Notes: generated from the letters alone by a model not told the origin. A stretch of 64,000 nt of DNA from an uncultured Planctomycetia bacterium (GCA_964606485.1 CAZSGP010000001.1:289085-353084), one strand, 5' to 3'. Counted from the first letter of the stretch, positions 43,137 to 64,000 are shown. A program made the numbers and translations.

Positions 43137-43208
43137 TAAATATTTAAGCATCCTTGACTAATAATAATTCATAATATATACTTCTTATCAATAGAGGACA
43201 AAAATATC

Positions 43209-44105: not shown

Positions 44106-44117
44106 GAGACCTGAGAA

Positions 44118-45194: not shown

Positions 45195-45199
45195 AGACA

Positions 45200-45640: not shown

Positions 45641-45649
45641 AGGTTTCCA

Positions 45650-47386: not shown

Positions 47387-49155
47387 AAAACCTAAACGAA
47401 TTCTTAATGGACGGTCTCAAAAAATTCACCAAGGTCACCGAGGCGGATGTCCGAAAAGCCGTGGCACTTTATTCCAACAAAGAGAGCGGAAAAATCGGAG
47501 AGGCTCTCATTCAAATGGGGCTTGTCACTGAAAAGGATCTGCGGCTGCTTTTAAGTGTAGAATTAAAAATTACAACGGTAAGCCTTGCGGACAAAAAAAT
47601 AAGCTCTGAGATCGGAAAAATGGTGCCAGAGCGCTACGCGAAGCGGTATTTATTTGTCCCGCTTTCAAACGTGGGCAACACTCTAACGCTCGCGATGGTG
47701 GACCCGCTCAATATTTTTGCGCTCGACGACGTTTCGGTTCTTAAAAATAATCGCGTCGAGTGCGTGATGTGTTCGGAGGGAGATGTTCAGCTGGCGTTCG
47801 ACCGTATTTATGGACGCGTGAAGGATAAGCCTGTAACACCAGAGACGGGAGTAAAGCCTCTGACGGCTGCGGCTGCTGCGGCTAAAGTGGCCAATACGAT
47901 TGGGGATGTTCGCGTTCAGGACGAGACTGACTCCGGCATGTTCGCAGGGGAGACTAATCAGGCGCCAGTGGTTAAAATCGTGGACGCTATCCTGCAAGAG
48001 GCGTTGAGGCGTCGGGCAAGCGACATTCACATTGAGCCCTACGAAGAAAAAGTTCGGGTTCGCTTCCGTATCGACGGAGGACTGCAGGAAGCTCAGGGCG
48101 TTGAAGTTCCAAAGAAAAATCAAAACGCGGTTTTGACTCGTTTAAAGATCATGTCAAAGCTGGACATTACTGAAAACCGAATTCCACAGGACGGTCGTTT
48201 TAAAATTAAATTTCAACAAGACGGCAAAGAAAAGGAAATTGATTTTCGCGTATCAATCCTTCCGATTCACCACGGCAGTAAAGTGGTTATGCGTATTTTA
48301 GATAAAAGTGCTCTGAGTTTGGGACTGGATAATCTTGGATTTTTGCCTGAAACGTTGAATGCCTTTAAAGATGCCGTGGCAAAGCCCTTTGGAATGATAT
48401 TAATCACCGGCCCAACTGGAAGTGGAAAGTCCACCACACTTTACTCCATTTTAAATCAGCTCAACACGCCCGATAAAAATATTATCACCGTCGAAGAGCC
48501 GATCGAATACCAGGTTCGGGGGATTAGCCAGATTCAGGTGCGCCAGGAAATTGGTCTTGATTTTGCCAGCGGCCTTCGCGCTATTTTGCGTCAGAGCCCG
48601 GATGTGGTGATGGTGGGTGAAATCCGCGACGGAGAAACAGCCGACATCGCGATCAAAGCGTCGCTGACGGGACAAATTGTGCTCAGCACGCTTCACACCA
48701 ACGATGCGTCGGGTGCCGTCACCCGCTTGGCGGATATGGGCATCGAGCCCTTCTTAATCGCGTCCAGCGTAATTTTAGTCGCTGCACAACGCCTATGCCG
48801 AAAAGTTTGTTCACAATGCAAACAGCCGATTGATATTCCCAGAGAGGTGTTCGAGCGCATGGGTCTAAACCCCGATACAATGTTCCCGGATATCAAAGAA
48901 AAAAAATTCATGAAAGGCGTCGGATGCGAAAACTGCAGTTTTACCGGGTATCGCGGACGCATGGGGGTGCTTGAGACGCTGATGATTGACGACGAGCTCC
49001 GCGAACTCATCGTTAAACGCGCATCGTCTTATGAAATCAAAGATTATGCCGTCAAGCATGGCATGACAACCTTGAGAGAAGATGCGCTTAAAAAATTTTG
49101 TTTGGGTTCTACGACGCTCGACGAAGTGATTCGCATAACTGCAGAGGACGAATAA
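47383..49155 (+). CDS. PilB/GspE-family extension ATPase (paralogue 2)
   Basis: GPTGSGKSTT. C-terminal Cys4 (CSQCKQ...CENCSFTGYRGR). ATGA overlap with paralogue 1. Confidence 0.9.
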   Translation: MKNLNEFLMDGLKKFTKVTEADVRKAVALYSNKESGKIGEALIQMGLVTEKDLRLLLSVELKITTVSLADKKISSEIGKMVPERYAKRYLFVPLSNVGNTLTLAMVDPLNIFALDDVSVLKNNRVECVMCSEGDVQLAFDRIYGRVKDKPVTPETGVKPLTAAAAAAKVANTIGDVRVQDETDSGMFAGETNQAPVVKIVDAILQEALRRRASDIHIEPYEEKVRVRFRIDGGLQEAQGVEVPKKNQNAVLTRLKIMSKLDITENRIPQDGRFKIKFQQDGKEKEIDFRVSILPIHHGSKVVMRILDKSALSLGLDNLGFLPETLNAFKDAVAKPFGMILITGPTGSGKSTTLYSILNQLNTPDKNIITVEEPIEYQVRGISQIQVRQEIGLDFASGLRAILRQSPDVVMVGEIRDGETADIAIKASLTGQIVLSTLHTNDASGAVTRLADMGIEPFLIASSVILVAAQRLCRKVCSQCKQPIDIPREVFERMGLNPDTMFPDIKEKKFMKGVGCENCSFTGYRGRMGVLETLMIDDELRELIVKRASSYEIKDYAVKHGMTTLREDALKKFCLGSTTLDEVIRITAEDE

Positions 49156-49156
49156 C

Positions 49157-50368
49157 ATGCCAAATTATCGTTATGTTGCACGAGATAAAACCGGAAAAAG
49201 TATTACGGCCGTTATGGACGCTAATGATGAGAAAGCTGTCATCGATTTTGCCCGCCAACAAGGCTTGATTCTGACCTCCATCAAGATAGACGCTCAGGAA
49301 ACCAAGAAGGTTGCCAAGCCCAAAACCGGCAAAAAAATAAAATTAACCGATTTGGTTCTTTTTTCAAGACAGCTGGCAACCATGATTGATAGCGGTATCC
49401 CACTTTTGCAGGCGCTTGAAATTTTATCGGAACAATCTGAAAATCCCGCCTTTGTGAATATATTGAATATCGTTAAAAACGATGTGGCCACCGGAACTGC
49501 CTTTTACGAGGCGCTCGCAAAACATCCGGGCGCATTTACTCCTTTATTTGTGAACATGGTGAAAGCAGGGGAGTCGAGCGGCGCGCTCGATGACATTATG
49601 GAGCGCTTGGCATCCTATCTTGAAAAAACGGATGCACTCATCCGAAAAGTGAAATCCGCCATGACGTATCCGATCGTTGTATCGACCATGGCGCTTAGCA
49701 TTACACTGGTTATGTTGCTTAAAGTAGTGCCTGTGTTTAAGAGTATGTTCGCGGATTTCGGAGCCGCACTCCCGCTCCCGACACAAATCTTAGTCACCAT
49801 CAGCGATAATTTGATCAGCACTTTCTTTCTGTGGTTTTTTGGAGCCATAGCCGGATTTGTAATGTTGGGCAAGTACATCAAGACACCTAAGGGGAGATTA
49901 CGATTCGATCACTTTAAGCTCAACATGCCTGTTTTCGGAGTCATTATGCGAAAAGTTTCGGTGAGCAAGTTTTGCCGCACACTCGCAACACTCGTTAAGA
50001 GCGGCGTGCCGATTTTAGCCGCGCTTGAAATCGTTGGAAAAACCGCCGGAAATAAAGTGATTGAAAACGCCGTCGACAGCGTTAAGTCGAGCATCCGTGA
50101 AGGAGAAAATATCTCCGAGCCTCTTGCCAAATCAAAAGTATTTCCGCCCATGGTGGTGCGCATGATCGCGGTCGGTGAGCAGACCGGAGAACTTGAAAAA
50201 ATGTTGAGCAAGGTTTCTGATTTTTACGACGACCAGGTGGACGCCGCTATTTCAGGGATCACTAGTTTGATCGAGCCGCTCATTATTGCCTTCTTGGGTA
50301 TCGTGATCGGCGGTATCGTGATTTGTATGTTTCTCCCAATCTTTAAGATCGCGAACATGGTTAGCTAG
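49157..50368 (+). CDS. pilC: Type IV pilus / T2SS platform protein PilC/GspF
   Basis: 403 aa. Two GspF repeats. Polytopic. Confidence 0.9.
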   Translation: MPNYRYVARDKTGKSITAVMDANDEKAVIDFARQQGLILTSIKIDAQETKKVAKPKTGKKIKLTDLVLFSRQLATMIDSGIPLLQALEILSEQSENPAFVNILNIVKNDVATGTAFYEALAKHPGAFTPLFVNMVKAGESSGALDDIMERLASYLEKTDALIRKVKSAMTYPIVVSTMALSITLVMLLKVVPVFKSMFADFGAALPLPTQILVTISDNLISTFFLWFFGAIAGFVMLGKYIKTPKGRLRFDHFKLNMPVFGVIMRKVSVSKFCRTLATLVKSGVPILAALEIVGKTAGNKVIENAVDSVKSSIREGENISEPLAKSKVFPPMVVRMIAVGEQTGELEKMLSKVSDFYDDQVDAAISGITSLIEPLIIAFLGIVIGGIVICMFLPIFKIANMVS

Positions 50369-50370
50369 AT

Positions 50371-51849
50371 TTGAAAACACGCCCACACTTTTTTTATATC
50401 ACCTTTATTTGCCTTGCAGGGTTTCTTGCGTATTCCAGCATTTTAAGCGGCGCATTTTTATGGGATGACATTAATTTAGTCCGCGACAATATCTTGATCC
50501 GCAGTTTTAAAAACCTCCCTCTCATTTTTTCTCACAACATCGGCGAGGGTTCCGCCGTGAGCTATATTTTTTACCGCCCCATGCAAGTCTTTAGTTATAT
50601 GTTGGATTTTTCGTGGTGGGGACTGAATCCGGATGGGTACCATTTGACGAACATCGTATGGCATCTTCTGGCTGCGAGTCTTGTTTATTTTGCTGCCTTT
50701 GAAATACTCAAAGATAAAACCGCTTCTTTTTTGACGGCACTTTTATTTGCGCTTCATCCGGTTCACACGGAGGCGGTGGCTTATATTTCAGGGCGCGCCG
50801 ATTCTCTTGCCCTTGTTTTTTTGCTGGCGGCTTTTTTAGGTTACCTGAAATCACTGGAATCTCGCAGGATTGGCATCCAAATAGCGTCAATAGCATTTTT
50901 TTTAATGGCCATTCTTTCAAAGGAAAGTGCGCTTATTTTTCCGGTGCTTATTTTTTTGCATCACCGCGTTTTTAAAACAAAATTTCCAGGACTCCTCTTT
51001 TGGTTATCGGTAGGGATCACCCTAGCCTACGGAGCGCTCCGGCTGACGCTCTTAAGGAGCTTCATGATTTTTGAGTCCGGACACGGAAATATTTTTGAAA
51101 GAATACCCGGATTTTTCGCGTCATATTTGAACTATCTCAAACTGCTCGTGTGGCCGTCGCCCTTGCACATGGAATATGGTTTTACGATTTACAAATGGTC
51201 CGATCCATTTGTCTGGGGCGGCGCTGTGGCGATGACCATTCTTTTACTAGTCATGGTTCAATTGTGGAGGCGAGGGGAACGCGCCATTTTTTTTGGGTGC
51301 GCCTGGTTTCTCGTTGCACTAATCCCTGTATCCAATTTATTTTTACTAAACGCCTCAATGGCGGAGCACTGGCTTTATGTTCCGTCGATTGGAGTTTTTC
51401 TAGCGTTGTCTGAGTGGACAGCACCTCTCTTCAAAAAGTCAAAATTAAAGGAATTGGCGGTGATCAGTGTTGCCGCAATTTTAGCAGGCTATGGACTCGC
51501 CACATTTGAACAGTCCAAAACATGGAAAGACCCGGTTATTTTTTACGAAAGAACGCTAGATTATGCCCCCAATAGTCTTGCCGTGAATGTAAATTTAGGG
51601 CTCGCACTTTATGAGAGAGGTGAAATTTCAAAAGCGTATCTTGTTTTTAAAAAAGCGGTGGAGCTTGGGCCGAATCAGTATTTCCCGTACTTTGGTCTGG
51701 GGTTGTGCGCAAATTCCTTGGGTAAACACCCGGAGGCGATAGCTGCCTACAACCGTTGCCTGGAGCTAAAGCCAGACTTGGTTCAGGCGCATAATAATTT
51801 ATCGGAAATTTATTACCCTAAAACTTTAAAAGGGGGAAGAGGTGAATAG
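50371..51849 (+). CDS. TMTC/PMT-like GT-C fold glycosyltransferase homologue (DUF1736-type) with C-terminal TPR repeats
   Basis: N-terminal FLWDDINLVRDN (acidic loop-1 motif) and GYHLTNIVWHLL resemble TMTC O-mannosyltransferases. Polytopic. C-terminal TPRs. Overlaps the pilin start. Confidence 0.65.
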   Translation: MKTRPHFFYITFICLAGFLAYSSILSGAFLWDDINLVRDNILIRSFKNLPLIFSHNIGEGSAVSYIFYRPMQVFSYMLDFSWWGLNPDGYHLTNIVWHLLAASLVYFAAFEILKDKTASFLTALLFALHPVHTEAVAYISGRADSLALVFLLAAFLGYLKSLESRRIGIQIASIAFFLMAILSKESALIFPVLIFLHHRVFKTKFPGLLFWLSVGITLAYGALRLTLLRSFMIFESGHGNIFERIPGFFASYLNYLKLLVWPSPLHMEYGFTIYKWSDPFVWGGAVAMTILLLVMVQLWRRGERAIFFGCAWFLVALIPVSNLFLLNASMAEHWLYVPSIGVFLALSEWTAPLFKKSKLKELAVISVAAILAGYGLATFEQSKTWKDPVIFYERTLDYAPNSLAVNVNLGLALYERGEISKAYLVFKKAVELGPNQYFPYFGLGLCANSLGKHPEAIAAYNRCLELKPDLVQAHNNLSEIYYPKTLKGGRGE

Positions 51850-52213
51850 AAGTTTAAGCGAGGCCGGATTTACACTCGTCGAAATTATGATCGTCGTAGC
51901 TATTATTGGATTGCTGGCTGCTATAGCGGTCCCTAACTTTGTCAGAGCCAGAGAATCCGCTCGCAGTAGCGCCTGCGTGAATAACTTGCGCCTAATTGAT
52001 GCGTCCAAAGAGCAGTATGCTTTGGAAAATAACATCGCGCATGGCGGGGCTACCACCTCTGATAGCCTGACGCCCTATCTGAAAAATAATGCATTTCCGC
52101 AGTGTCCGGCTACAAGTTCTACGTACGCCACGAATGCTGTGGGGACCTATCCTAGTTGCGACCTGTCAGGAGCCTCTTCCGGGCAAACCCCGCTGAGCCA
52201 TCGACTCAATTAA
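51842..52213 (+). CDS. Type IV pilin / pseudopilin (prepilin N-terminal methylation motif)
   Basis: Leader MNRSLSEAG followed by FTLVEIMIVVAIIGLLAAIAVPNF. Ser/Thr-rich C-terminal third. Confidence 0.8.
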   Translation: MNRSLSEAGFTLVEIMIVVAIIGLLAAIAVPNFVRARESARSSACVNNLRLIDASKEQYALENNIAHGGATTSDSLTPYLKNNAFPQCPATSSTYATNAVGTYPSCDLSGASSGQTPLSHRLN

Positions 52214-52334
52214 GTTCAGCTTGTTAATAGTGTAAATATATAAGTCTATAATGTTGATATTATTGATAACTATGTTATATTATAGTATATAAATAGTAAT
52301 TAATGATAAATTTAAAGCTAATTTTTCCTTAACT
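52214..52334. promoter_or_regulatory. AT-rich tract (>80% AT) separating the pilin gene from the downstream block. It contains TTGATA / TATATA-like promoter elements.
   Basis: Composition is sharply different from the flanking ~50% GC coding sequence. Confidence 0.3.
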
Positions 52335-53555
52335 GTGCAGTTGGTGCCGATGAGAAACTCATATCATTTATACGCTCCGGGAGATCAGTTTCAGATTGAT
52401 ATTAAATATCTCTCGGCCGGCGGTGAGCAGGCGAGTGAGAGTAAGGTTGTCAATGTGGCGGATGTGAGAGGCGGGGGTTTTTTTGGAAAAGTGCTGATCC
52501 TTCGGGGTGAGGGCTTTGTGATTAAAACAACTCAGCCCGATCCGTGGCAGCATTTTTGGAGAATTGTGAATTGGGATTTTAAGCCATTTCCAGCCCAGCA
52601 GGATGAATTATCCGCTCAGATCGAACACCTATCCACTCAGATCATTCACCTGACTCTCCCCATTGTTTCTGGGGGAAAGTTTTATAGTCCTCGGTCCATT
52701 GGCTACACGCTTTTAGCGAATGGATTCGCTCAAGTGATAGAGAAAATGAGCGGTCGAGGACCTCGTTTTGACAAGGCGGGCAATGAGTATGAGTTATTTC
52801 GCCAGGCGCAGTCGGAGCTCGCCACAATTGCTCTGAGTCTTGGATTGGAGGCTGTTGGACAAATTCATCCGGACAACCCTTTTAGTATGGCGAACCTGTG
52901 GTTAGACGAGAGCCGGAATCGCTTTGTCTGGCTGGATACAAACGCGGCAATTCGTCATACCGGTTGGGTGAAACCAATATTTTATTTCAAATTTCATAAG
53001 CGTATTCGAAATGAGTTTGGGGGTAAAGAGCTTACGTTTAATAAGATTCATGCTGACCGATTTCGCGCAACGCTTAAGCGGAAGCAAGGCGAATTTGATG
53101 AAAAAATTTACGCGATGATTATGAATTATTTAGATTTGTACGAACGTTTATGGAATAGACGAAAGGTTCGGCATGAAAATCAATCCTTTGATGTGGAGAA
53201 TGTCTTTCTTGTGCTGAGGCAGCTAGCCCTAAACATAGTCCCGGGTATTGTGCATGCGTTACGGAAGACGCTGATGTGTCCCATGCAGTTGGTGTTTAAG
53301 AGCCGGTTCGGTCATCAGCTACGACTTCAGTCCGCATTGCAGGCTTTGCAGTGTGGATTGCTATCGCAGGATGAATATTGCCAGGCTATAGATGGTGATC
53401 GAACGCTGCTTCGGCACTGTGTTATCCGAAAATTTATTCGTGATCTCTCTAAAATTAGTCCAGCCGGAGGTGTGGGGTCCCAGTTGGATGCGCAGCTTTG
53501 GCTCAAGTTAGGAAGTCGGATAGAGAAGATATTGGAAAGCCGGCAATGCGCTTAA
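52335..53555 (+). CDS. Atypical kinase-fold protein (eukaryotic-like kinase / APH / Kdo-kinase type)
   Basis: Gly-rich loop plus Lys (GGGFFGKVLILRGEGFVIK). Brenner-type catalytic motif HPDNPFSMANLW. WLDTN (DFG-like). GTG start at 52335 or ATG at 52350. Confidence 0.45.
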   Translation: MQLVPMRNSYHLYAPGDQFQIDIKYLSAGGEQASESKVVNVADVRGGGFFGKVLILRGEGFVIKTTQPDPWQHFWRIVNWDFKPFPAQQDELSAQIEHLSTQIIHLTLPIVSGGKFYSPRSIGYTLLANGFAQVIEKMSGRGPRFDKAGNEYELFRQAQSELATIALSLGLEAVGQIHPDNPFSMANLWLDESRNRFVWLDTNAAIRHTGWVKPIFYFKFHKRIRNEFGGKELTFNKIHADRFRATLKRKQGEFDEKIYAMIMNYLDLYERLWNRRKVRHENQSFDVENVFLVLRQLALNIVPGIVHALRKTLMCPMQLVFKSRFGHQLRLQSALQALQCGLLSQDEYCQAIDGDRTLLRHCVIRKFIRDLSKISPAGGVGSQLDAQLWLKLGSRIEKILESRQCA

Positions 53556-56500
53556 TAGAGAAGGAGGGGCAAGGGAGAAATTTTGTGAGACTTTGCGTTA
53601 AGCTTCTTTTGATTTTTGATGTGATTCTTTGCTTGCTGCACCAGCTATTTCCGCATTATCAATGGGGTCAGGGCAGGAGCTCCTATTTCACTCTCTCAAG
53701 TGCAATGACACTGAGTTCTTGGTTTATCAGTATGCAGTTAATCGGGATATCGATCTTCTCATTGCTAACTCTTCTTAAGAGGTGGGACTGGGGGCGACGG
53801 GGTACTTTTCAATGGGTTTGGTTTTTATTGGTATCGGCCGCGTTATCCGTGGCGGAGTTTACGCGATTTCATATCAAAATGAACTTTCTCAATCCCCTTG
53901 ATTCAAACATCTTTCATTCGATTGGAGTCTATCTGCTTGGGGGTATGTTTTTAGGTGTAAGCGGCACACTCATCTGGATGACGCCTGGAGCCTCGTTGCG
54001 GACGAAAATCTTGAGCTTTGGGTGGCTTCTATCGTGGTTGGGCGCAGGCTTATTAACACTGGGTAGCGCATGGGCGCCCGCTGATTGGATGGGCGCGGTT
54101 GCCTATTTATTTGGCACTACGTTGTGGCTAGCGGTAGCTTCAGAACTCTATTTTCAAGAACCAAGTCAGGAGCATCGTGCCGATAACGCCAAAGAAGCTC
54201 CTCCTGTTTCAATTGGCTCAACATGGCTGCTGCTGGGAGTTGCGGGAAGCTCATTTACGATGATTTTTTTACAAGTACTACACTTTCAAATTTTGACCGT
54301 TGCGGTGGATACCCTGGCCGCGCACTCTGTGCTTCCGCTCGCACTCATTGGAATTGCCGTGGGAGGAATTCTGGGGTTGAGAATATCGAGAATGGATTCG
54401 GCGGGGCAATTGAGCGTCGGACTTGCGGCGCTACTGCCAATTTCAATTTGTGCTAGTTTTGCTGTGGCGTCAAATGAGCCCTCACATTTAGCGCTTGGTT
54501 TGGCGCTACTTTTTATTCCGTTTATGATTTGCGGCGCACTCATCACATTAGGTCTCGTATGGTTGCAACCGAGCGTTGTGTATTGTGTGGATTTATTGGG
54601 AGCGGCGCTAGGCGCTTTTTGTCTTCCCTTTTGTTTGGCTTATTTTCAAGAGGAGGGTAGTCTTTGGTTTTTAGCGGCAATCGCTTGCTTGGTAGCCGTT
54701 TGTTTTGCAAAGGCTTATCGAATGTTCGGCCGCCGATTCTCCGTAATCCCCTATCTGGCGCTCGCTGGGTTTATGGCGTTCACGGCAATGGCTTATACGC
54801 AAAAACAGGGGCAGGGGCTGAATATCGTAGCCCCTAAAATCCAGGCGAGCTTTCCCGGCTCAGAAATCATTTTTTCAAAGTCATCTTTTGTAGGGCGGGT
54901 TGATTTGGTACGACGAAGCCGTAAAAGCGATTTGCTAAAGGCCTATGAGAACGGTTTTACCATTGATACGATTCGCAAAAATATCCCTGAGCAGTATCAA
55001 ATCGATCCGCGGATACCCAGCCGGCTGGCAACGAACCCAAAAATTCTTATTCTAGGTCTTGCTGGAGATGGGGTTACTAAAACGGCCAAACAACTGAGCA
55101 ACTCCGTCACGGGAGTAGAGATAAACCCTGCCATGGTTGCTTTACAGAAGAGTGAAGCCTCTGAATTTAACGCAAACAGTTACCAGGGCATCGATGTCAA
55201 GGTTATGGATGCCCGCAGCTTTCTTCAAACTAGTTCCGAACAATATGACGTCCTTACTCTATTAAACGCGCACACTGCTCGCGGCCGGGCGCATTATAGC
55301 GGGGTCAGTGCTGAGTATCTCCATACCAAAGAGGCGGTGCGAGAGTATTGGGATCATATGACTCCAAGAGGATTTCTAAGCATTGAGGAGCCCGCTGATC
55401 GCCCATCAAAGGAGCCTGGCATCTGGAAGTTTCTGGTAACCATGCGGGGCGCTCTGTTGGATGCGGGAGCACAGAACCCTGAAAATCATTTTTTTGTTTT
55501 TCAATGGAAGACAAAATCAAATAATTACATCCAGATCATCCTAAAGAAGTCTCCCTTTACGCAAGAGCAAATCTCCGATTTAAAAAAATGGCTCGATGAG
55601 ATTGATCGGTTGCGAGAAATAGAGAAAATCCAGCAGAGGCGTCTAGGACCCATAGACTGCAAAACAACTTTGCTTTACTCGCCCGGGGAGAATGTTCAAA
55701 CCACCTATGCCAACCTGATTCGCGGAACTGCTAACCCGCAATTGCACAAACAGCGCAACCTAGTTCCGGCGACTGATGACCGGCCATTTTTGTTTAACAC
55801 CGATCCTCGGCAGGGGGCTTTGTACAGTGTTTATCTGCGAACGCTTCTATTGGTTTTACTTCTGGGAGCTTGGTTGATAGGGTTGATGAGAAAACAAAAT
55901 GCCAAGTCATTTGAAGTTCTATCAGTGCTGTGCATGGCATCGTTAACAGGCGTTGGGTATTTATTGGTAGAGCTTGTCTTGATGCAGCGGTATCAAATTT
56001 TTTTAGGGTCTCCCGTCACGGTGTTTTGCGTGGTTTTAGGATCTATGCTGGTATTCTCAGGTTTAGGCAGTTTGTGGGGTGCCCGCCACGGTTTGAGGGC
56101 TATGGTGTTTTCAATTATTGGCGTGGTGGTGAATTTATGGATGCACCAGCAGTTTGCCCCCATTTTTTTGGATAAATTTTCCAATCAAGCATTGATCATA
56201 AAGTGCTTTATTACCATAGCGAGTTTAGCCCCGTTATCATTTTTTATGGGAGTTCCATTTCCTTACCTTATCCAGAATATTAAAGAGCGTTTAAACGCCT
56301 CATTTGCCGGGGCGGCGGTTGCCGCAAATGCAGGGGCAAGTGCGCTTGGTGTCCCCCTAGCATTGATGCTTTCGATGAAACTAGGTTTTAACGGTGCATT
56401 TGCCTGCGCTATGCTTATTTATGGTGCGGTTGCCGTTTCGTTTTTTTGGATGAACCGGAATAGGTTTGCTATAGCAGGATTTTTTTCTTTGACGATTCTC

Positions 56501-57343
56501 GCGGTAACGTTGGCCAGCCCAACCTTGATTAATTTGTGTTCCGGTGATTTGAAAGACAAAAATAATGGATACCAGGTTTATGGAATTCGTTACGGACGAT
56601 CACTCATGGCTGAACGACAGCTGATTCGCGGGGGGGATAAAAATAAGAAGGTTTCTTTGGATTGGAGATTTTGGCTCGTTCAGGGGTCTGGTAAAAATAT
56701 ACTGGTTGATACGGGTTTTGAAAATCCATCTTTGGCGCGCCAGAAGCATTTTTCAAAGTATGTTCGCCCATCAAAAAAACTTTCCGATCTTGGAATAGAG
56801 CCTTCTGAAATTACGGATGTGATTTTGACTCATGCGCATTGGGATCACGCGGGCGGTGTGCGGATGTACCCGAATGCCGTTATCTGGATGCAGAGCCGAG
56901 AGTGGGAGCATATGCTCCAGCTAAAAGTGAGCAATCAAAAAAAGGTTAAGGGTATGCGATACAAGGATTTCGAGGCGCTAGAACAAGCTTATGAGCAAGG
57001 CCGTTTACGATTGTTGAGCGGAGATGCGGATGTAGCTAGCGGCATTCGTGTTGAACTGGGTGGCGGACACACGCCCGGGTCTCAGGCGGTGATCGTCAAG
57101 GGCTTGGAAGGCAATTTTATTATCGCGGGGGACACCACTTATCTTTATCGAAACAGCCAATGGCATCAACCGATTGGGGGCGGTGCGGATTCCGAAGAAA
57201 ATTTACGAATGATTCGGCGTTTTCACGCAGACTCAGCGTCCCCTTACTATATTTTACCCGGACACGATCCATTGATTGGCCGGTGTTTTCCGGAGGTTGC
57301 CAAAGGAATTGTTGAGATCACCTCCGCGGCGGAGCGTCGATGA
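53546..57343 (+). CDS. Giant polytopic membrane protein fusing a spermidine-synthase-like domain and a C-terminal MBL-fold (lactonase-like) domain
   Basis: About 440 aa of transmembrane helices. PABS-like region ILILGLAGDG...VTGVEINPAMVAL...DVKVMDARSFL...YDVLTLL. A second transmembrane block. C-terminal HAHWDHAGG (HxHxDH, AiiA-like). The start could instead be the track's 53498. Confidence 0.7.
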   Translation: MRLIEKEGQGRNFVRLCVKLLLIFDVILCLLHQLFPHYQWGQGRSSYFTLSSAMTLSSWFISMQLIGISIFSLLTLLKRWDWGRRGTFQWVWFLLVSAALSVAEFTRFHIKMNFLNPLDSNIFHSIGVYLLGGMFLGVSGTLIWMTPGASLRTKILSFGWLLSWLGAGLLTLGSAWAPADWMGAVAYLFGTTLWLAVASELYFQEPSQEHRADNAKEAPPVSIGSTWLLLGVAGSSFTMIFLQVLHFQILTVAVDTLAAHSVLPLALIGIAVGGILGLRISRMDSAGQLSVGLAALLPISICASFAVASNEPSHLALGLALLFIPFMICGALITLGLVWLQPSVVYCVDLLGAALGAFCLPFCLAYFQEEGSLWFLAAIACLVAVCFAKAYRMFGRRFSVIPYLALAGFMAFTAMAYTQKQGQGLNIVAPKIQASFPGSEIIFSKSSFVGRVDLVRRSRKSDLLKAYENGFTIDTIRKNIPEQYQIDPRIPSRLATNPKILILGLAGDGVTKTAKQLSNSVTGVEINPAMVALQKSEASEFNANSYQGIDVKVMDARSFLQTSSEQYDVLTLLNAHTARGRAHYSGVSAEYLHTKEAVREYWDHMTPRGFLSIEEPADRPSKEPGIWKFLVTMRGALLDAGAQNPENHFFVFQWKTKSNNYIQIILKKSPFTQEQISDLKKWLDEIDRLREIEKIQQRRLGPIDCKTTLLYSPGENVQTTYANLIRGTANPQLHKQRNLVPATDDRPFLFNTDPRQGALYSVYLRTLLLVLLLGAWLIGLMRKQNAKSFEVLSVLCMASLTGVGYLLVELVLMQRYQIFLGSPVTVFCVVLGSMLVFSGLGSLWGARHGLRAMVFSIIGVVVNLWMHQQFAPIFLDKFSNQALIIKCFITIASLAPLSFFMGVPFPYLIQNIKERLNASFAGAAVAANAGASALGVPLALMLSMKLGFNGAFACAMLIYGAVAVSFFWMNRNRFAIAGFFSLTILAVTLASPTLINLCSGDLKDKNNGYQVYGIRYGRSLMAERQLIRGGDKNKKVSLDWRFWLVQGSGKNILVDTGFENPSLARQKHFSKYVRPSKKLSDLGIEPSEITDVILTHAHWDHAGGVRMYPNAVIWMQSREWEHMLQLKVSNQKKVKGMRYKDFEALEQAYEQGRLRLLSGDADVASGIRVELGGGHTPGSQAVIVKGLEGNFIIAGDTTYLYRNSQWHQPIGGGADSEENLRMIRRFHADSASPYYILPGHDPLIGRCFPEVAKGIVEITSAAERR

Positions 57344-59907
57344 TGAGACCATCCGAGCGGCTTTTGAACATTTTGTTGTTTAGCCTGTTTGCCGCGGCAG
57401 TTATTTTTGGTGTGCTGCACGGCGTGTACCAGGATTGGCAGGTGGGTGGAGTGGAGTGGTTTAATCTGGACCGGGAGAGAAATTTTCCAACATGGTTTTC
57501 AGGTTTTGTGCTTTTTTTGATGGGTTGCTCCTCTGTGGTTGCCTACTACTGGGAAAAGAAGCGATTGGCTGAGGGGGTTAAGCACTTTAAGCTGCCGGTG
57601 CTATGGTTAGGAGTGGCGTTTTTAAGCTTTTTAATGTCACTAGATGAAATGACCGCGCTTCACGAGAATATTTGCTGGCGCGAGATTCGTCAGTTTTCCG
57701 CTTCAAAAGGCGGGGGCTTCGAGCATGTCACCCAATGGCAAATTCTTTTTATCCCGCTTCTATTGATCATCTTTTCTTACTTCGCCGTGTTTTTTTTAAA
57801 TCGATTTGCTTCTAGCGCCCGCATGCGCTTTTGGGGTCTGTCGGGCCTAGGGTGCCTGCTGTTTTCTATCGCTTTGGAGGGGCTAAGAAATTGGTTTAAA
57901 CATCATGGGCACGACTTTTACAGCGCACAGGTTTTGGGTGAGGAATTATTAGAAATGTTTGGGATGTTGTTTATTTTTGGAGCCATTCAGTTCTACGTGA
58001 AAGATATTTCTAACAGCTCCGCGGGCTTAAACCCAAAGAGACTGCCAGTAGGACCTGCTTTTTTTACTCGCAAATCCGCGGGAGCTCTTTTAATACTATT
58101 TGTCGCCTTTACGTTACTCGCACTGCTTGCGTATAAAACAGCTGCGAGCTTATCGAAAAAAGGGGTGGGGGCACCCAAATTGTTTGATCAAGCTCTTCGT
58201 TCCAACTTAAAGGAGACAAACGAAAAATCGGTGGTATGGTTTGAAAATGTTGAAGGTGTTGGCAATACCTTAACTTTCGAACAGGGGGCTCAAATGGTTC
58301 GCTCCGCGCACCTAGCGCTGAAATCACCTGGCGAGACTGCTCATAGTTGGCCGCTAGATCTATCGAATGATCAAGCCCCTAGAATCGCATTTCTTTCAGT
58401 AACCACTGGTAAGTCTAGGGCCCGAGTTTTTTCTGGGACGGGCCTCGGTTACACAAAGGCTCTGGAGCAATCGATAGTAAAGGCTCGCAAGGTTTTTAAA
58501 AACTCTCAGAAAAATTTATGGGTTAAGCTGGATATCGTTTCAGAGGTCAGAGTTGCGGCTTCTAATAACCCGGATGATTTTGAAGGGCTTAGTTTTGGTC
58601 TAGAGGGTATTGCCACCGGCAAACCGTCGCCTTCCGCGCTTATACCGGAAGTTCTTTCCTCGCGCGGTTACATCAGTTCCGCGGGCCGCCCCACCTCAAA
58701 GCTTACGGAATGGATCTCCAATAGAAAAGAAGCCCAAAACATTTTCCGCTTTAAAACAAAAAGTTATTTTAGCGACAAAGATACGGTTGTGGAGCTCTAT
58801 AGGGGTCATCGGGTGTACGATCAGCTGAGTCGAGAGATTTTGATGGATTCAGCAAAACGCGCAGGCGAATACCTTGTGAGAAATACGGATGAGAACGGAC
58901 GATTTAATTATATTTATAAGCCCGAAGTGAACCGGGTGATAAATTCATATAACGTGGTGCGTCATGCGGGAACCCTCTATTCAATGATGGAGCTTTATGA
59001 GGCGGCACCGGATCCAGAGCTTTTATCGGCCGCCACCCGCGCTATTAGCCACTTATTGAGTTATGCGCGACCTGTGGAGACTCGTTTGGGCAATGCGCTT
59101 GCAATTGTGGACGGGACGAGTGTGAAACTTGGAGCCAATGCTCTGACGGTTGTTGCATTATCAAAGTATATGCAAGTCACCGGAGACCGTAAAGAGGCGG
59201 ATAAGTTAATCAAGCTCGGCCTTTATATTCGAGATTCACAACTAGAATCTGGCGAGTTTATTTGTAAACGAGAGCACCCTAGCGGCAATCAAATTCCATT
59301 TCAATCGGAGTACTACCCCGGCGAAGCTATATTGGCCATGGTCAGGCTCTATGAACATGATCCGCAACCTTACTGGCTAGACAGCGCCCAAAAAGCTACC
59401 GATTTTCTGATTCATGTCAGGGATAAGGGTTTAGCGACGGAAAAGCTCATCCATGATCATTGGCTTATTATGGGATTAAATGCTCTGGCTGAACACAGAC
59501 CGGACGCTAGTCATACCCAGCATGCCCTTCGAATTGCGGAGGCTATTATGAAGAGCCAGATTCAACATTCAGCCATAGAAGATTATATCGGGGGATGGGG
59601 CGAGCCCCCGCGGGCTACGCCTGCCGCTACTCGAAGCGAAGGTTTGATAGCGGCTTATCGAATAGCCGAGCGGCAAGGAATGAATGATTTTAAAATTAAG
59701 GTAATGGACTCGCTGGGGAAGGCTGTCAAATTTCAGCTAGGAAACCAATTTGGGTCCGAATCTTCCATGTATATGCCATTCCCAAAAAAATCAATCGGCG
59801 CCTATCGCCGTAGTCATTTATCCTACGAGACACGAATTGACTATAGCCAACATAACATCTCTAGTTTAATAGGGTTATGTAGTATTCTTAATAAGTTAGA
59901 AGATTAA
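57340..59907 (+). CDS. Membrane protein with a large C-terminal soluble alpha-helical (toroid-like) domain
   Basis: About 280 aa N-terminal transmembrane region. ATGA overlap with the upstream ORF. No confident domain assignment. Confidence 0.5.
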   Translation: MMRPSERLLNILLFSLFAAAVIFGVLHGVYQDWQVGGVEWFNLDRERNFPTWFSGFVLFLMGCSSVVAYYWEKKRLAEGVKHFKLPVLWLGVAFLSFLMSLDEMTALHENICWREIRQFSASKGGGFEHVTQWQILFIPLLLIIFSYFAVFFLNRFASSARMRFWGLSGLGCLLFSIALEGLRNWFKHHGHDFYSAQVLGEELLEMFGMLFIFGAIQFYVKDISNSSAGLNPKRLPVGPAFFTRKSAGALLILFVAFTLLALLAYKTAASLSKKGVGAPKLFDQALRSNLKETNEKSVVWFENVEGVGNTLTFEQGAQMVRSAHLALKSPGETAHSWPLDLSNDQAPRIAFLSVTTGKSRARVFSGTGLGYTKALEQSIVKARKVFKNSQKNLWVKLDIVSEVRVAASNNPDDFEGLSFGLEGIATGKPSPSALIPEVLSSRGYISSAGRPTSKLTEWISNRKEAQNIFRFKTKSYFSDKDTVVELYRGHRVYDQLSREILMDSAKRAGEYLVRNTDENGRFNYIYKPEVNRVINSYNVVRHAGTLYSMMELYEAAPDPELLSAATRAISHLLSYARPVETRLGNALAIVDGTSVKLGANALTVVALSKYMQVTGDRKEADKLIKLGLYIRDSQLESGEFICKREHPSGNQIPFQSEYYPGEAILAMVRLYEHDPQPYWLDSAQKATDFLIHVRDKGLATEKLIHDHWLIMGLNALAEHRPDASHTQHALRIAEAIMKSQIQHSAIEDYIGGWGEPPRATPAATRSEGLIAAYRIAERQGMNDFKIKVMDSLGKAVKFQLGNQFGSESSMYMPFPKKSIGAYRRSHLSYETRIDYSQHNISSLIGLCSILNKLED

Positions 59908-59950
59908 AAATTAACAATACTTATAATTTAATAAATATTATAATTGAATA

Positions 59951-59978
59951 TTGACATTTATTAAATATAATATATAAT
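59951..59978 (+). promoter_or_regulatory. Consensus sigma70 promoter TTGACA-16-TATAAT inside an AT-rich tract, upstream of the minor-pilin operon
   Basis: Exact -35 and -10 hexamers with a 16-nt spacer. About 65 nt upstream of ATG 60046, which has an AAGGAGA ribosome-binding site. Confidence 0.5.
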
Positions 59979-60045
59979 TTAATTAGAATTGATGCAATAA
60001 TAGGTTTGAGATTTTGATGTCAAAAAACTGTCCAAGGAGAGTCAT

Positions 60046-60612
<567 letters not shown>

Positions 60613-60641
60613 TTATGAGCAGTAGAAGAAAAGGAGTTTTT

Positions 60642-61130
60642 GTGAAAAGCGCAGATAGATCGGGATTCACGTTGGTAGAGGTACTGCTTGCATCGGTGCT
60701 AGCGATCGTGGCCCTTACGGCTGTAGGGCTCCTGATTACCGACAGCGGTGTTTTTGCTTCGCGAAACAACCGATCGAATGTATATGCGTTAAACGCTGTT
60801 CGTGAGCAAATTGAAGATATTCGCAACACCAACTTCGATACTCTCATCGGTTATGGTAGCCCCTATTCGTTTACCAACGCTCAGTTGGCTATGATCCCTG
60901 GGGCAATTGGGAGTGTTGTTTTGGCTGATGCGGCAGGAAGTGATATTAAAAAGATCACCGTCTCTGTTACCTGGGTTGGAGCGAAAGGAGAAAGCCTTTC
61001 TACGAGTGCAACGACTCAAATTTCTCGCTCCGGGATCAATAGTGGATCCGGTGTTGCAAGAAGCCCATCTGGCGGCGATGATGACGATGACGATGATGAC
61101 GACGATGACGGCGATGACGACGATGATTAG
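60642..61130 (+). CDS. Paralogous GspI/PilV-like minor pilin with a shorter poly-Asp tail
   Basis: GTG start with an AAGGAG ribosome-binding site. RSGFTLVEVLLASVLAIV. About 60% identical to the upstream paralogue. Tail D11-G-D5. Confidence 0.8.
   Translation: MKSADRSGFTLVEVLLASVLAIVALTAVGLLITDSGVFASRNNRSNVYALNAVREQIEDIRNTNFDTLIGYGSPYSFTNAQLAMIPGAIGSVVLADAAGSDIKKITVSVTWVGAKGESLSTSATTQISRSGINSGSGVARSPSGGDDDDDDDDDDDGDDDDD
61077..61127 (+). repeat. In-frame (GAY)n repeat encoding D11-G-D5
   Basis: Direct reading. Confidence 0.9.
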
Positions 61131-61172: not shown

Positions 61173-61787
61173 GTGGATGGTTTTGTGGAGGTGAGAGGCC
61201 GTAGTGGGTTTACAGTAGTTCAAACCCTAACCGCTTTGTCTCTGAGCGTACTGGTGCTAGGGGCATTTCTGACCGCATTTTTTGGAATGAGAAACTCATT
61301 GTTTGCTCAAGACAGTTATTTTACCTCCAACCGAACCGGTTATTACGCAATCAACGTACTTTCGAAGGATGTTCGAGAGGCTATTGCAATTGAAAGTAGC
61401 TATGGAAGCGACACAACCGGAACATCCGTGCTGATTCTTCGGTTACCGAGTATTAGCGCCTTAGAGATTCCTACGGATATTACGAGTCAATATGACTACG
61501 TTACTTATAAGTTAAGCGGCACGAATCTTACGCGCACATTGGATGTTTTGGGAGGCACAAGCAACCGTAACGGCGGTAGTGACATTAGCGGAAAAATTAT
61601 CGCGAGGAATATTACGGCGTTTACACTTTCCACATCATCTGGCACGGCGTTTAGCAGCTTGAGCTCGTCACAGATAGAAGCATTAAGTTTTTTTAATGTG
61701 GCGTTGACGTCATCCGAAACAATCGCCGGAAGGGCCCGAACTATGGTTGCCGACTCCAATATGAAACTCATGAATTATGGCACATAA
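61173..61787 (+). CDS. Minor pilin (GspJ/PilW-like) with a prepilin-like N-terminus
   Basis: RGRSGFTVVQTLTALSLSVLVL has a hydrophobic N-terminal helix but Gln in place of Glu5. Ser/Thr-rich. Alternative GTG starts at 61185 and 61191. Confidence 0.55.
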   Translation: MDGFVEVRGRSGFTVVQTLTALSLSVLVLGAFLTAFFGMRNSLFAQDSYFTSNRTGYYAINVLSKDVREAIAIESSYGSDTTGTSVLILRLPSISALEIPTDITSQYDYVTYKLSGTNLTRTLDVLGGTSNRNGGSDISGKIIARNITAFTLSTSSGTAFSSLSSSQIEALSFFNVALTSSETIAGRARTMVADSNMKLMNYGT

Positions 61788-63063
61788 GCAGCCTTGTCCC
61801 ATGTTTAAAAAAATGAATAATCAAAGCGGAATGACACTTTTAACGGTAATTATTTTTACTATTTTTTTGTTTGTGCTTTGTGCGACGTACATGGAGAAGT
61901 TGGCCGGAGAGAAGCGGATGACTCTTGCCACCCAAGAGGGGTTTAACGCAACCAATATTGCAGACGCGGTGGCTGAAGAAGTATTCTGGAGATACAATTA
62001 TAATAATTTTTCCACCAACGCCTCAGGGAACGGATGGTCGACGGGGGCGGGGTCGTGCGGCTCTGCCACCTCCGCTTGCACCGGATCGGTAAGTACGCCA
62101 ATCACTTTTACAGACACCAGCGGGACAACGGTCGGGAATTATTATGCCACCATTGCTGCTTATGCGACTGCTCCCATTTTGACGGTCAACACAACCTATA
62201 CCGGCGGAACTGAGAAACGCATCGGCAATACAGCTCAGATCCTGGTCGCTTACCAGGCCAAGCCAAAATATCCGGGTGCTGTTTTGGCAAAGGGACTCGT
62301 TACCTTGAGTGGGAATGGATATACCGACAGCTATGATTCTGCCGCAGGTGTGTACGGCGGCAGTAATATTAATGCCAATGGCGATATTGTTACGAATAGC
62401 GCGTCAAGCACGGCAGTCTCATGGAATGGATCATGCCACATAGAGGGAGACGCGGTTGTTGGTGTTGGCGGCGGTGTTACAGATTCATCTGACGTGAGCG
62501 GCATAGTGTCTGCCTCAGCCAATGAAACCATAAGTGATGTGACCTACTCTACTTCGGCGGTTGATGCTGGGACTCTGACTACTGATCGCGCATTCACTGC
62601 CGGCACCTATCAGTACACAGCGTGGTCGCTTGGAGGGGGGGACGATATCACGATCACCGGAGATGTTATTGTTTATTTATCCACTACCGGAACGGCACTT
62701 TCAACGACGGGCAATGCCAATGTGACGATTGCCAGCGGGTCAACGCTCACTATATATACGAAAGGAAACATTGATATGGGGGGCACCGGCATTGTTAATA
62801 ACAATGGTTCCAGTAACCCCGATACGTTGATTATAAATGGGACTAGTACCTGCACGAGTGTATCCCTTGGCGGGAACAGTGCGCTGACAGGCCTCATTAA
62901 TACTCCATATGCCGCCGTGAGTACAAGCGGTAGCACGACTCTCAACGGCGCTATTATTTGCGATACGGCCAGCTTGGGACAGCCGGTTCACTATGACGAA
63001 GATTTGTTGATTAATGGCCCAACGAATGGTTGGGAGCTTAAATGGTATCGTAAAATACGTTGA
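61777..63063 (+). CDS. Large minor pilin / tip-associated protein (GspK/PilX-like), rich in Thr/Gly/Ser
   Basis: NQSGMTLLTVIIFTIFLFVL prepilin-like helix without Glu5. 428 aa with an adhesin-like low-complexity body. Confidence 0.5.
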   Translation: MAHKQPCPMFKKMNNQSGMTLLTVIIFTIFLFVLCATYMEKLAGEKRMTLATQEGFNATNIADAVAEEVFWRYNYNNFSTNASGNGWSTGAGSCGSATSACTGSVSTPITFTDTSGTTVGNYYATIAAYATAPILTVNTTYTGGTEKRIGNTAQILVAYQAKPKYPGAVLAKGLVTLSGNGYTDSYDSAAGVYGGSNINANGDIVTNSASSTAVSWNGSCHIEGDAVVGVGGGVTDSSDVSGIVSASANETISDVTYSTSAVDAGTLTTDRAFTAGTYQYTAWSLGGGDDITITGDVIVYLSTTGTALSTTGNANVTIASGSTLTIYTKGNIDMGGTGIVNNNGSSNPDTLIINGTSTCTSVSLGGNSALTGLINTPYAAVSTSGSTTLNGAIICDTASLGQPVHYDEDLLINGPTNGWELKWYRKIR

Positions 63064-64000
63064 CCCTGATTAAAAGCATTTTAATTGTTGTTTTAACGAC
63101 TTTATCGCTATGTCCAGTCCTTAGAGCTGAGGTTGAGCTCGTCGGTAAGGGTGCTATTTTGGCCGATGCGACGGATTTATCCGGCTTGACGGGAGCTTAT
63201 GAGGATGGCACGCCGAAGAATCGTTTAGGTTCGGCCGGGTCTGGCATCACTTATACGGGCCGATCCAATCGTTATCTTTTCTTGTCAGATCGCGGGCCCG
63301 GAAACGGATCATTGGACTATCAAGCTCGTTTTCATGAGGTGGATCTGAAGTTGTCGGGCGCAGAAGTGGCAATTAATCTAAAGGCCACGACGCTTCTTAA
63401 AAGCTCTACTTCTAAGCCATACTCAGGGCTATCTTCGTCTAAGCGTCGATTGGATCCAGAATCTTTACGATTGGATTCGAGAGGCATTGTTTATATCGCA
63501 GATGAATACGGTCCCTCCATATTAAAATTTGAGCGCAAAACCGGAAAAATTATTGATCGACTCGCTATTCCCCAAAAGTTTTTGCCTTTGTATCCCGATC
63601 GCTCGCACTCCAAAGAGTTGCCGCCTCACAACACGGTTGGTCGTCAGCCGGGTCGGGGTTTTGAGGGTCTTGCGATCAGCCCAAACGGTAAAAAAATCTA
63701 CGCAATTTTACAGAATCCGCTATTGCAAGATCGGGCACTTGACGAAAAAAATAAGCGCATTGGGAAAAGTGTGAGACTGCTTGAGATTCATTTGAAAACG
63801 AGAGTTACGAAAGAATATTTGTATCTTTTAGACCATGCTCGGGGAGGGATTAGCGATATGGTTGCGGTCAGCGATACTCAGTTTCTCGTTATCGAACAAG
63901 ATTCGAAACCGGGAAATCGGGCAGAGTTTAAAAGAATTTACAAAATTGATGTCTCCGGCGCATCTGACATTTCCTCGCTGGGAGGACTTCGAAAGAGATC
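63060..64000 (+). CDS. Secreted phytase-like / esterase-like family protein (3' end outside the window)
   Basis: The frame is open from the TTG at 63060 to the window end and is absent from the ORF track because no stop occurs. Signal-peptide-like MTLIKSILIVVLTTLSLCPVLRA. The similarity to the phytase-like beta-propeller family is a call from memory. Confidence 0.45.
   Translation, partial: MTLIKSILIVVLTTLSLCPVLRAEVELVGKGAILADATDLSGLTGAYEDGTPKNRLGSAGSGITYTGRSNRYLFLSDRGPGNGSLDYQARFHEVDLKLSGAEVAINLKATTLLKSSTSKPYSGLSSSKRRLDPESLRLDSRGIVYIADEYGPSILKFERKTGKIIDRLAIPQKFLPLYPDRSHSKELPPHNTVGRQPGRGFEGLAISPNGKKIYAILQNPLLQDRALDEKNKRIGKSVRLLEIHLKTRVTKEYLYLLDHARGGISDMVAVSDTQFLVIEQDSKPGNRAEFKRIYKIDVSGASDISSLGGLRKR

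Follow-up and report, generated by a model that had tools for sequence, protein, structure and literature searches.

The block between the pilin and minor-pilin genes

The 64,000-nt stretch of DNA analysed here (GCA_964606485.1 CAZSGP010000001.1:289085-353084, listed under an uncultured Planctomycetia bacterium; hereafter the window, with positions counted from its first letter) carries a type IV pilus locus in which the gene for the major pilin and those for the minor pilins are separated by three co-directional, overlapping open reading frames (ORFs) at 52335-59907. Together with two AT-rich spacers these form the block of interest, 52214-60045. Judged from the sequence, the core of this block, ORF2 and ORF3, most probably serves the adjacent minor pilins, two of which end in tails of poly-aspartate (poly-Asp), as a dedicated accessory module, and would be part of a widespread undescribed system. 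The features of the block and its immediate surroundings are as follows.

51842-52213, plus strand: major type IV pilin, 123 amino acids (aa), with an N_methyl motif and a PilA/GspG-type N-terminus
52214-52334, no strand: AT-rich spacer 1, 121 bp, GC 0.182, with sigma-70-like sites
52335-53555, plus strand: ORF1 (gene caller start at 52350)
53498-57343, plus strand: ORF2, with a TTG start (the gene caller uses the ATG at 53546)
57340-59907, plus strand: ORF3, with a 4-nt overlap with ORF2
59908-60045, no strand: AT-rich spacer 2, 138 bp, GC 0.181, with a consensus promoter
60046-60612, plus strand: minor pilin mp1, 188 aa, with the leader GFTLVE and the C-terminal tail D13-G-D9-(HG)4-D7-E (tail 60487-60609)
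60487-60576, plus strand: poly-Asp tract of mp1, from the six-frame scan
60609-61130, plus strand: minor pilin mp2, 173 aa, 65% identical to mp1 and ending D11-G-D5 (tail 61071-61127)
61173-63063, plus strand: mp3 (204 aa) and mp4 (428 aa, DUF7305, in a PilX-like position), the rest of the minor-pilin operon

Upstream of the block the genes run in the order PBP2, RodA, GGDEF, PilT, MshEN, PilB, PilB, PilC, a transmembrane (TM) protein with tetratricopeptide repeats (TPR; the TM-TPR gene) and the pilin, and those from GGDEF to the pilin are closely packed, with overlaps of 4-8 nt. With the starts chosen by the gene caller (52350 and 53546), ORF1 and ORF2 overlap by 10 nt and ORF2 and ORF3 by 4 nt. 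An earlier reading made from this DNA alone (the sequence-only reading) had described tightly packed pilus genes with short overlaps at 43209-52213, followed by a 121-bp tract of more than 80% AT, three overlapping ORFs splitting the pilin from the minor pilins, and a second tract of 138 bp containing a TTGACA-16-TATAAT promoter. All of these observations hold at the positions given above.

The window has 19 intergenic gaps, and the three richest in AT are the two spacers, each approximately 82% AT, and the gap at 43137-43208 (GC 0.208) that heads the pilus operon; in the remaining 16 the GC is 0.28-0.55. Promoter-like sites with 10/12 matches are found in spacer 1 at 52224-52252 and 52254-52281, and the TTGACA-16-TATAAT site of spacer 2, at 59951-59978, matches at 12/12 positions. 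Good sigma-70-like hexamers are present in all three gaps, and no terminator-like hairpin was found in any of them, the tract of spacer 1 included. The AT-rich tracts are thus predicted to be promoter spacers, and the hexamers together with the lack of terminator-like hairpins suggest three transcription units, consisting of the pilus machinery with the pilin, of ORF1-3 and of the minor pilins. The possibility that the tracts are insertion scars was rejected, as there are no flanking repeats and the tracts resemble the promoter-type spacer at 43137-43208. Direct and inverted repeats flanking the block are at chance level only, and a Pfam search revealed no integrase, recombinase or transposase in 52214-60045. 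The GC of the block (0.46-0.47) and its GC at third codon positions (GC3, 0.47-0.48) equal those of the neighbouring genes, ruling out a compositional island; a GC and codon-usage profile was among the checks proposed by the sequence-only reading. The recombinase, repeats and deviant composition of an integrated mobile element are therefore all lacking.

PilC served as the synteny anchor, giving 80 metagenomic Omnitrophota loci with a PilC 52-70% identical to that of the window; the TM-TPR protein was unsuitable, being massively paralogous in the Omnitrophota, and look-ups with it landed in arrays of paralogues. The 80 loci keep the order PBP2-RodA-GGDEF-PilT-MshEN-PilB-PilB-PilC, and ORF1, ORF2 and ORF3 occur in none of them (0/80). 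In the closest relatives PilC is followed by one or more pilins, 52-64% identical to the major pilin of the window in the related loci, and a TM-TPR gene. Further 3' are genes which we take, from their sequence, to be PilMNOQ-like, RNase G-like, those of ribosomal proteins L21 and L27, and Obg-like. Three more distant loci (L166, L169 and L170) have a homologue of mp1/mp2 as the next gene after the pilin, then another minor pilin and a PilX-like protein, with a spacer of 125-205 bp (GC 0.30-0.31) between pilin and minor pilin. A pilin beside the minor pilins is therefore an existing arrangement in the phylum and, as none of the 80 related loci carries the block, the latter is a lineage-specific addition. 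The synteny comparison proposed by the sequence-only reading thus bore out the addition, though not the treatment of the three genes as one unit.

ORF1 (406 aa, or 401 aa from the start at 52350) is an atypical protein-kinase-fold protein with a Gly-rich loop, a catalytic-loop HxD...N and a metal-binding Asp. It is an internally deleted member of a family of approximately 530 aa with about 40 clusters, lacking the hydrophobic segment of approximately 150 aa found in the family, and its named relatives are candidate-phyla-radiation (CPR) bacteria, Microgenomates. No Pfam family matched at E<=0.01, and hence there is no ABC1 match. No homologue of ORF1 was found near other ORF2-ORF3 pairs, and the small ORFs found 5' of ORF2 in two loci, L003 and L006, show no relation to ORF1. 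A three-gene operon conserved elsewhere was rejected on this basis, and with ORF1 absent from the other pair loci the conserved unit is the ORF2-ORF3 pair rather than all three genes. On these comparisons the block is of mixed make-up: ORF1, an add-on of kinase fold particular to this lineage, is predicted to be coupled to ORF2 in translation but has no conserved link to the pair, and is in effect unrelated baggage.

The ORF2-ORF3 pair and poly-aspartate tails

The labels given to the three proteins by the sequence-only reading (kinase-like, a fusion of a spermidine-synthase-like and a metallo-beta-lactamase (MBL) domain, and an alpha-domain protein) agree with the domain searches and predicted folds, as does its statement that none matches a characterised pilus component: while the flanking genes match type IV filament components in Pfam/NCBIfam, ORF1-3 do not. 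Both members of the pair are modular membrane proteins.

53585-54172, plus strand: ORF2 N-terminal 6-TM module, aa 30-225, paralogous to the N-terminal module (N-module) of ORF3
54833-55822, plus strand: ORF2 SpeE/class-I methyltransferase-like domain, aa 446-775, with approximately seven TM helices on each side
56558-57343, plus strand: ORF2 C-terminal MBL-fold domain, aa 1021-1281 (Lactamase_B 74.2 bits against a cut-off of 22.7)
57340-58044, plus strand: ORF3 N-terminal membrane module, aa 1-235, with invariant D102-E103, H108-E109-N110 and E201-E202-x-x-E205
58831-59904, plus strand: ORF3 (alpha/alpha)6 barrel, aa 498-855, predicted to face the periplasm

ORF2 (1281 aa, or 1265 aa from the ATG at 53546) is a polytopic membrane protein with three recognisable modules, in the order 6-TM N-module, approximately seven TM helices, Rossmann domain of the S-adenosylmethionine (SAM) type, TM bundle and MBL-fold domain. 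It is conserved over its whole length, with a mean column identity of 60% across ten loci from different phyla. The Rossmann domain aligns to positions 151-379 of NCBIfam PRK03612 with an E-value of 7e-14, at 51 bits against a cut-off of 472, and scores 12.5 bits with Spermine_synth, for which the cut-off is 22.9; on these scores it is not assigned to the spermidine synthases (SpeE). Methyltransf_25, _11 and _12 also match below threshold. The motifs of class I SAM-dependent methyltransferases are present, with GL(S/A)GDG and V-E-I-N-P invariant, and MD(G/A)R is conserved as well. In SpeE the acidic substrate-binding motif after beta-4 is D-S-[ST]-D-P; at this position the ORF2 proteins have T-L-(L/M)-N-(A/T)-H, invariant in 10/10 orthologues (TLMNAH in the window). 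The C-terminal domain belongs to the MBL superfamily and has a complete site (THAHWDH), with H1112-A-H1114-W-D1116-H1117, H1191, D1212 and H1256 all invariant in the ORF2 alignment. Its profile matches PDB 8x78 with an E-value of 6e-41 and N-acyl-homoserine lactone (AHL) lactonases at approximately 1e-17; it scores at best 63.6 bits against the 375 set for quorum-quenching AHL lactonases (AiiA, AidB, YtnP), and so is not assigned to them. Weak matches were also observed, of the ORF2 N-module to Acyl_transf_3 (E 0.0014) and, in PADLOC, of ORF2 to mad2 (E 1e-5, over the methyltransferase-like stretch) and LmuA (E 0.008).

ORF3 (855 aa) consists of a 7-TM N-terminal region, an alpha/beta domain and the barrel (AF2 model, pLDDT 87.6). 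From the seven TM helices and the positive-inside rule, judged by eye, the remainder of the protein is predicted to lie outside the cytoplasm. The barrel has the six hairpins of the (alpha/alpha)6 fold and is of the AGE/GH76 type. R541-H542 and D706-H707-W708 are invariant and E662, R765 and E767 conserved, all of them at the starts of helices; the catalytic residues of these families are a two-His acid/base pair in AGE and Asp-Asp in GH76. The N-modules of ORF2 and ORF3 are paralogous (hhalign 98.4%, E 4e-15, 183 columns), and a full HMMER scan at E<=0.001 placed 4375 clusters in the family of the shared module, many being stand-alone proteins of approximately 230 aa. The module, of approximately 220 aa, also occurs in tandem or fused to TPR, Peptidase_MA_2, FG-GAP or MBL domains, with TPR fusions in 13/60 sampled members. 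No Pfam family covers it, and a Pfam search with the separated domains of ORF2 and ORF3 at E<=10 gave nothing above threshold, the weak hints for ORF3 being PspC-TM for the N-module and GH88 and Pectate_lyase_2 for the barrel. ORF3 has 28 homologues at 32-48% identity, one of which carries a PGA_cap domain as a fusion, and the soluble part of ORF3 is encoded by over 587 species-representative genomes.

ORF2 and ORF3 stand side by side in no fewer than 14 further loci, drawn from about ten groups of bacteria (L002, L003/4, L005, L006, L008/43, L011, L013, L014, L018, L023, L172, L174 and L175, with partial loci in L007 and L173, where ORF2 is cut off or unannotated at the contig end). The lineages include Anaerolineae, Lentisphaerae, Planctomycetota (including Scalindua), Nitrospinaceae, Acidobacteriota/Thermoanaerobaculia and Syntrophaceae. 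On contigs that extend far enough, a full-length ORF3 nearly always has an ORF2 orthologue immediately upstream, the exceptions being L012, L015 and L027; in L023 ORF3 is split, with a membrane-module gene beside ORF2 and the soluble part encoded divergently. The other genes around the pair differ between loci. From its distribution the pair appears to be a conserved, horizontally spread unit of two membrane proteins.

About half of the loci, from five phyla or more, carry type IV filament genes no more than a few kb from the pair. A search by tblastn with the pilus proteins of the window had suggested that the pair is never near pilus genes, and this was overturned by Pfam scans of the neighbours, a census covering nine pair loci that returned N_methyl and T2SSF matches. 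A FimU-PilX-PilW-PilV operon is divergently adjacent to ORF2 in L013, there are three pilin-like genes in L023 and one in L174, and a TadE and a VWA protein are encoded near the pair in L002. CpaB-TadZ-prepilin peptidase (A24)-TadB-TadC follow directly downstream in L006. In L172 a DUF7305 homologue of mp4 is directly 5' of ORF2 (phmmer E 8e-14).

The partner that recurs with the pair, however, would seem to be a secreted protein with a poly-Asp tail and not the pilus as such. Poly-Asp tracts were defined as at least 10 Asp in any 12 residues and sought by six-frame scan. In the window they are confined to mp1 and mp2, whose genes begin 139 bp (mp1) and 702 bp (mp2) downstream of the pair. Elsewhere they are present in 9/14 other pair loci (10/15 with the window), in 2/6 loci with a full-length ORF3 only and in 12/66 loci with a stand-alone barrel. 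None was found in the 80 Omnitrophota pilus control loci or in four other control loci, and a laxer filter for D/E-rich stretches gave zero matches over the 861 kb of these 84 loci. Fisher tests give p = 2e-10 for the pair loci and 3e-5 for the stand-alone loci against the 84 controls, which are almost all Omnitrophota pilus loci rather than random loci of the pair genomes and are phylogenetically narrow. The closest poly-Asp gene is at a median distance of 434 bp from the pair or barrel gene, and lies within 2 kb in 18/24 loci where 20% would be expected were it placed uniformly (p = 1e-8). Since poly-Asp genes adjoin the pair in 10/15 loci and none of the 84 controls has one, the pair is unlikely to be a random insertion.

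The tract-bearing proteins are otherwise unrelated, comprising pilins, SdrD_B/DUF11, cadherin/Big_9 and LTD proteins, a TPR lipoprotein and DUF7467, and nearly all have a signal peptide or pilin leader, with the tract mostly at the extreme C-terminus. The gene order of the window is repeated in L011 (Planctomycetota), where ORF2 and ORF3 are followed directly by a pilin-like gene ending in poly-Asp, while in L172 a protein with a D/HG tail like that of mp1 and the DUF7305 protein precede ORF2 and ORF3. The adjacent operon of L013 encodes a FimU-like minor pilin with a 60-residue poly-Asp tail. The partners in L015, L057 and L085 combine SD repeats with poly-Asp, the partner in L018 has an SdrD_B domain, and in the filamentous cyanobacterium ESFC-1 a poly-Asp protein is encoded directly beside the barrel gene. 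Homologues of mp1/mp2 in Omnitrophota loci without the pair lack the tail. The tail DNA of mp1 and mp2 mixes GAT and GAC codons, which points to selection at the protein level. Taken together, mp1 and mp2 are likely candidate clients of ORF2-ORF3.

Proposed function and alternatives

We propose, with about even confidence, that the pair is an accessory module acting on poly-Asp-tailed surface proteins, which here would be mp1 and mp2 of the minor-pilin operon. In this model the paralogous modules would hold ORF2 and ORF3 together in the inner membrane. Once a client has been exported, the alpha/beta and barrel part of ORF3, which is predicted to face the periplasm, would engage the client's acidic tail or a group that the tail carries, and ORF2 would supply transferase and hydrolase chemistry. 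The outcome may be covalent modification or processing of the tail. Carboxylates might be esterified or amidated, a glycan or polyamine might be attached, or the tail might be trimmed, synthesis of a docking polymer being a further candidate, and the modification could tune the binding of cations, minerals, surfaces or polycations by a poly-anionic pilus tip containing His-Gly. More tentatively, and with somewhat less than even confidence, C-terminal poly-Asp tails may represent an unrecognised tag on exported surface proteins that is processed by a dedicated ORF3-family system, with ORF2 in its full form. Such a system would be spread over at least ten bacterial groups and would occur also in cultured cyanobacteria and alkaliphilic Bacillaceae, and a literature search, necessarily incomplete, yielded nothing on bacterial poly-Asp-tailed pilins or the ORF2-ORF3 pair. 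If correct, this would be a new class of envelope machinery directed at protein tails and built from domains without characterised relatives, one of them the membrane module found in more than 4000 protein clusters without a Pfam family. It would account for minor pilins and adhesins ending in 20-60 aspartates, and would imply that the pilus tips of uncultured, host-associated Omnitrophota are poly-anionic, bind metals or cations and are under enzymatic control. The proposal is directly testable, as loci with a stand-alone barrel are found in cultured ESFC-1, Spirulina subsalsa and alkaliphilic Bacillaceae.

Several observations weigh against an action of the pair on the tails. The closest structural neighbours of the barrel act on sugars and not peptides, and we know of no poly-Asp-acting enzyme that resembles ORF2 or ORF3. 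The soluble part of ORF3, considered as a poly-anion binder with a basic surface, has a pI anywhere from 4.5 to 10.3. The TM count of ORF2 before the SpeE-like domain is ambiguous (13-14 from hydropathy and the positive-inside rule), so that the domain may lie on either side; were it periplasmic, it could not use SAM or decarboxylated SAM (dcSAM). A poly-Asp gene is absent from the available sequence of L003/4, L008/43, L173, L174 and L175, L173 and L175 ending at the pair. The pair has a promoter-like spacer of its own, separate from that of the minor pilins, and the narrow control set described above also counts here.

An alternative is an unrelated mobile cassette, in which ORF1-3 are acquired envelope-metabolism genes for glycans or polyamines sitting in an AT-rich spacer with no tie to the pilus, and poly-Asp co-occurs with them through shared islands of surface genes. 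The absence of the block from the related loci, with pilin abutting minor pilins in L166, L169 and L170, is as expected for this, as are the patchy spread of the pair across phyla, the block's own promoter-like spacer, the transposases or conjugation genes that adjoin the pair in L002 and L005, and the glycosyltransferase, PMT and Wzy genes that adjoin it in L003/L004, where the flanks vary between strains. We nevertheless consider it unlikely: the block has no compositional anomaly, flanking repeats or recombinase, poly-Asp is absent from control sequence that includes surface-protein-rich pilus loci yet its genes lie at a median of 434 bp from the pair or barrel gene, and the succession of pair and poly-Asp pilin recurs in a different phylum (L011). 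Cargo of a mobile element of another kind, such as anti-phage defence, is very improbable. The patchy distribution, the mobile elements near the L002 and L005 pairs and the weak mad2 and LmuA matches are compatible with it, but PADLOC gave no significant match to a defence system, there is no nuclease or NTPase core, and both proteins are polytopic membrane proteins with an extracytoplasmic domain resembling carbohydrate enzymes.

It is also conceivable that the tails are left untouched and merely dock electrostatically to a polycationic or glycan envelope component made by the pair, for example a polyamine-modified lipid or wall polymer. The SpeE-like domain of ORF2, the two bona fide Spermine_synth genes directly after ORF3 in L172, the likeness of the barrel to carbohydrate-active enzymes, and the stand-alone barrel of alkaliphilic Bacillaceae, in the company of ATP-grasp and CapA-like genes of the sort that make acidic wall polymers, all point in this direction. 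Against this, TLMNAH replaces the catalytic acidic motif of SpeE, all spermidine-synthase models score far under threshold, and no conserved genes for polyamine precursors are found nearby, making this explanation improbable. We give similarly little credence to a generic accessory of type IV filaments, acting in pilin glycosylation or wall remodelling for type IV or Tad pili, with poly-Asp incidental. While filament genes do accompany about half of the pairs, and the membrane module is often fused to TPR as in GT-C protein glycosyltransferases, many poly-Asp partners are not pilins, most stand-alone barrel loci are without filament genes, and 80 related pilus loci function without the pair. 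Of the two possibilities that the sequence-only reading had left side by side, an insertion or a dedicated accessory module co-regulated with the pilus locus, the link to poly-Asp thus favours an accessory module for ORF2-ORF3; the block is nonetheless a lineage-specific addition, and ORF1 has no part in the module, so that the idea of a single three-gene module did not survive.

Two sets of neighbours were noted in other loci of the system. In L172 (7822-11959) the two genes with Spermine_synth domains encode proteins of 478 and 902 aa, and hint that certain versions of the system do carry out polyamine chemistry. In alkaliphilic Bacillaceae (L067, L073, L077, L068, L069, L074 and L075) the stand-alone barrel gene lies among 3-5 ATP-grasp genes, some with acylphosphatase-like ends, together with a CapA-like/ATP-grasp fusion and very large peptidoglycan-binding/glucosaminidase proteins; these clusters may be loci for acidic wall polymers. 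That they and the PGA_cap fusion fit a wider theme of poly-acidic peptides or polymers is only a lead.

Other features of the window and comparison with known systems

The pilus operon at 43209-49155 begins with a HAMP-GGDEF diguanylate cyclase and encodes a stand-alone protein of the MshEN domain, a domain that binds cyclic di-GMP (c-di-GMP), and two PilB paralogues, each with MshEN; from these genes, control of pilus assembly by c-di-GMP is suggested. A riboswitch of the c-di-GMP-I-GGC type (Rfam RF03167), with 65 bits exceeding the gathering score, is found on the plus strand at 4847-4922, just 5' of an ORF of 440 aa (5021-6343) that has no Pfam match. The TM-TPR protein at 50371-51849 adjoins the pilin, and its homologues are named Candidatus Omnitrophota or Omnitrophica; the genome is treated here as one of the Omnitrophota, and the contig is a metagenomic assembly of 546 kb. 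Its family is massively expanded in the Omnitrophota, with at least six paralogues on one 1.8-Mb contig and tandem arrays of 5-6 (L090, L091). Some members match PMT_2, a GT-C glycosyltransferase family, and the protein may be a candidate glycosyltransferase for pilins or other surface proteins. Unlike its closest relatives, the window has no PilMNOQ genes after PilC. The minor pilins are followed (window 63060-64000, locus L001 15721-22568) by a Phytase-like (PF13449) protein, a second 123-aa pilin gene, two more TM-TPR proteins and a YfhO-like protein. The region at 8036-16811 is a probable integrated mobile element, encoding a 920-aa primase-like protein (CHC2 zinc finger and Toprim), a PIF1-type helicase (12145-13479) and a large serine recombinase (15165-16811). 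The TPR protein encoded at 1678-4527 (949 aa) has a PIN domain and, at its C-terminus, a GreA/GreB domain, and belongs to the 'TPR-GreAB-C-PIN system' type (PF20698).

The individual proteins can each be set beside a known family. ORF1 differs from the UbiB/ABC1-type atypical kinases in having no Pfam ABC1 match, in its CPR-named family and in its internal deletion. ORF2 resembles the membrane-anchored spermidine-synthase-like proteins of the PRK03612 type in that a TM bundle precedes a Rossmann domain of the SAM/dcSAM type; it lacks their aminopropyltransferase acidic motif, scores far under their cut-off, and has in addition the N-module, a second TM bundle and the MBL domain. The latter shares with the MBL-fold lactonases (AiiA, GcL and the methyl parathion hydrolase group) a complete HxHxDH site and strong profile E-values, but it is tethered to a protein with at least 20 TM helices and is far under the lactonase cut-offs. 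The barrel of ORF3 has only 11-15% identity to the epimerases and isomerases of the AGE superfamily and to GH76 and GH88, with no Pfam family above threshold. It differs further in the alpha/beta domain and 7-TM anchor to which it is joined, and in having as its genomic partner an acidic peptide tract rather than a sugar pathway.

At the level of the system, the staphylococcal serine-aspartate-repeat (SDR) adhesins have dedicated glycosyltransferases, SdgA and SdgB (PMC3794999, PMC8561734). There, as here, an acidic low-complexity tract is carried by exported surface proteins and the modifying enzymes are encoded beside their clients. SdgA and SdgB, however, are soluble GT-B enzymes acting on Ser, whereas ORF2 and ORF3 are polytopic and show no homology to them, and the tracts described here are pure Asp with no hydroxyl acceptor, making this an analogy of logic and not of family. 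The C-terminal sorting systems provide the other comparison. Their tags consist of a short motif, a TM helix and a basic cluster, while the poly-Asp tails have no TM segment and consist of Asp with or without Gly or His, and ORF2 and ORF3 gave no sortase-type match. With sortase/LPXTG, exosortase/PEP-CTERM and rhombosortase/GlyGly-CTERM the proposed system nevertheless has in common a C-terminal tag on otherwise unrelated exported proteins, a polytopic membrane enzyme encoded adjacent to them, and a patchy distribution across phyla.

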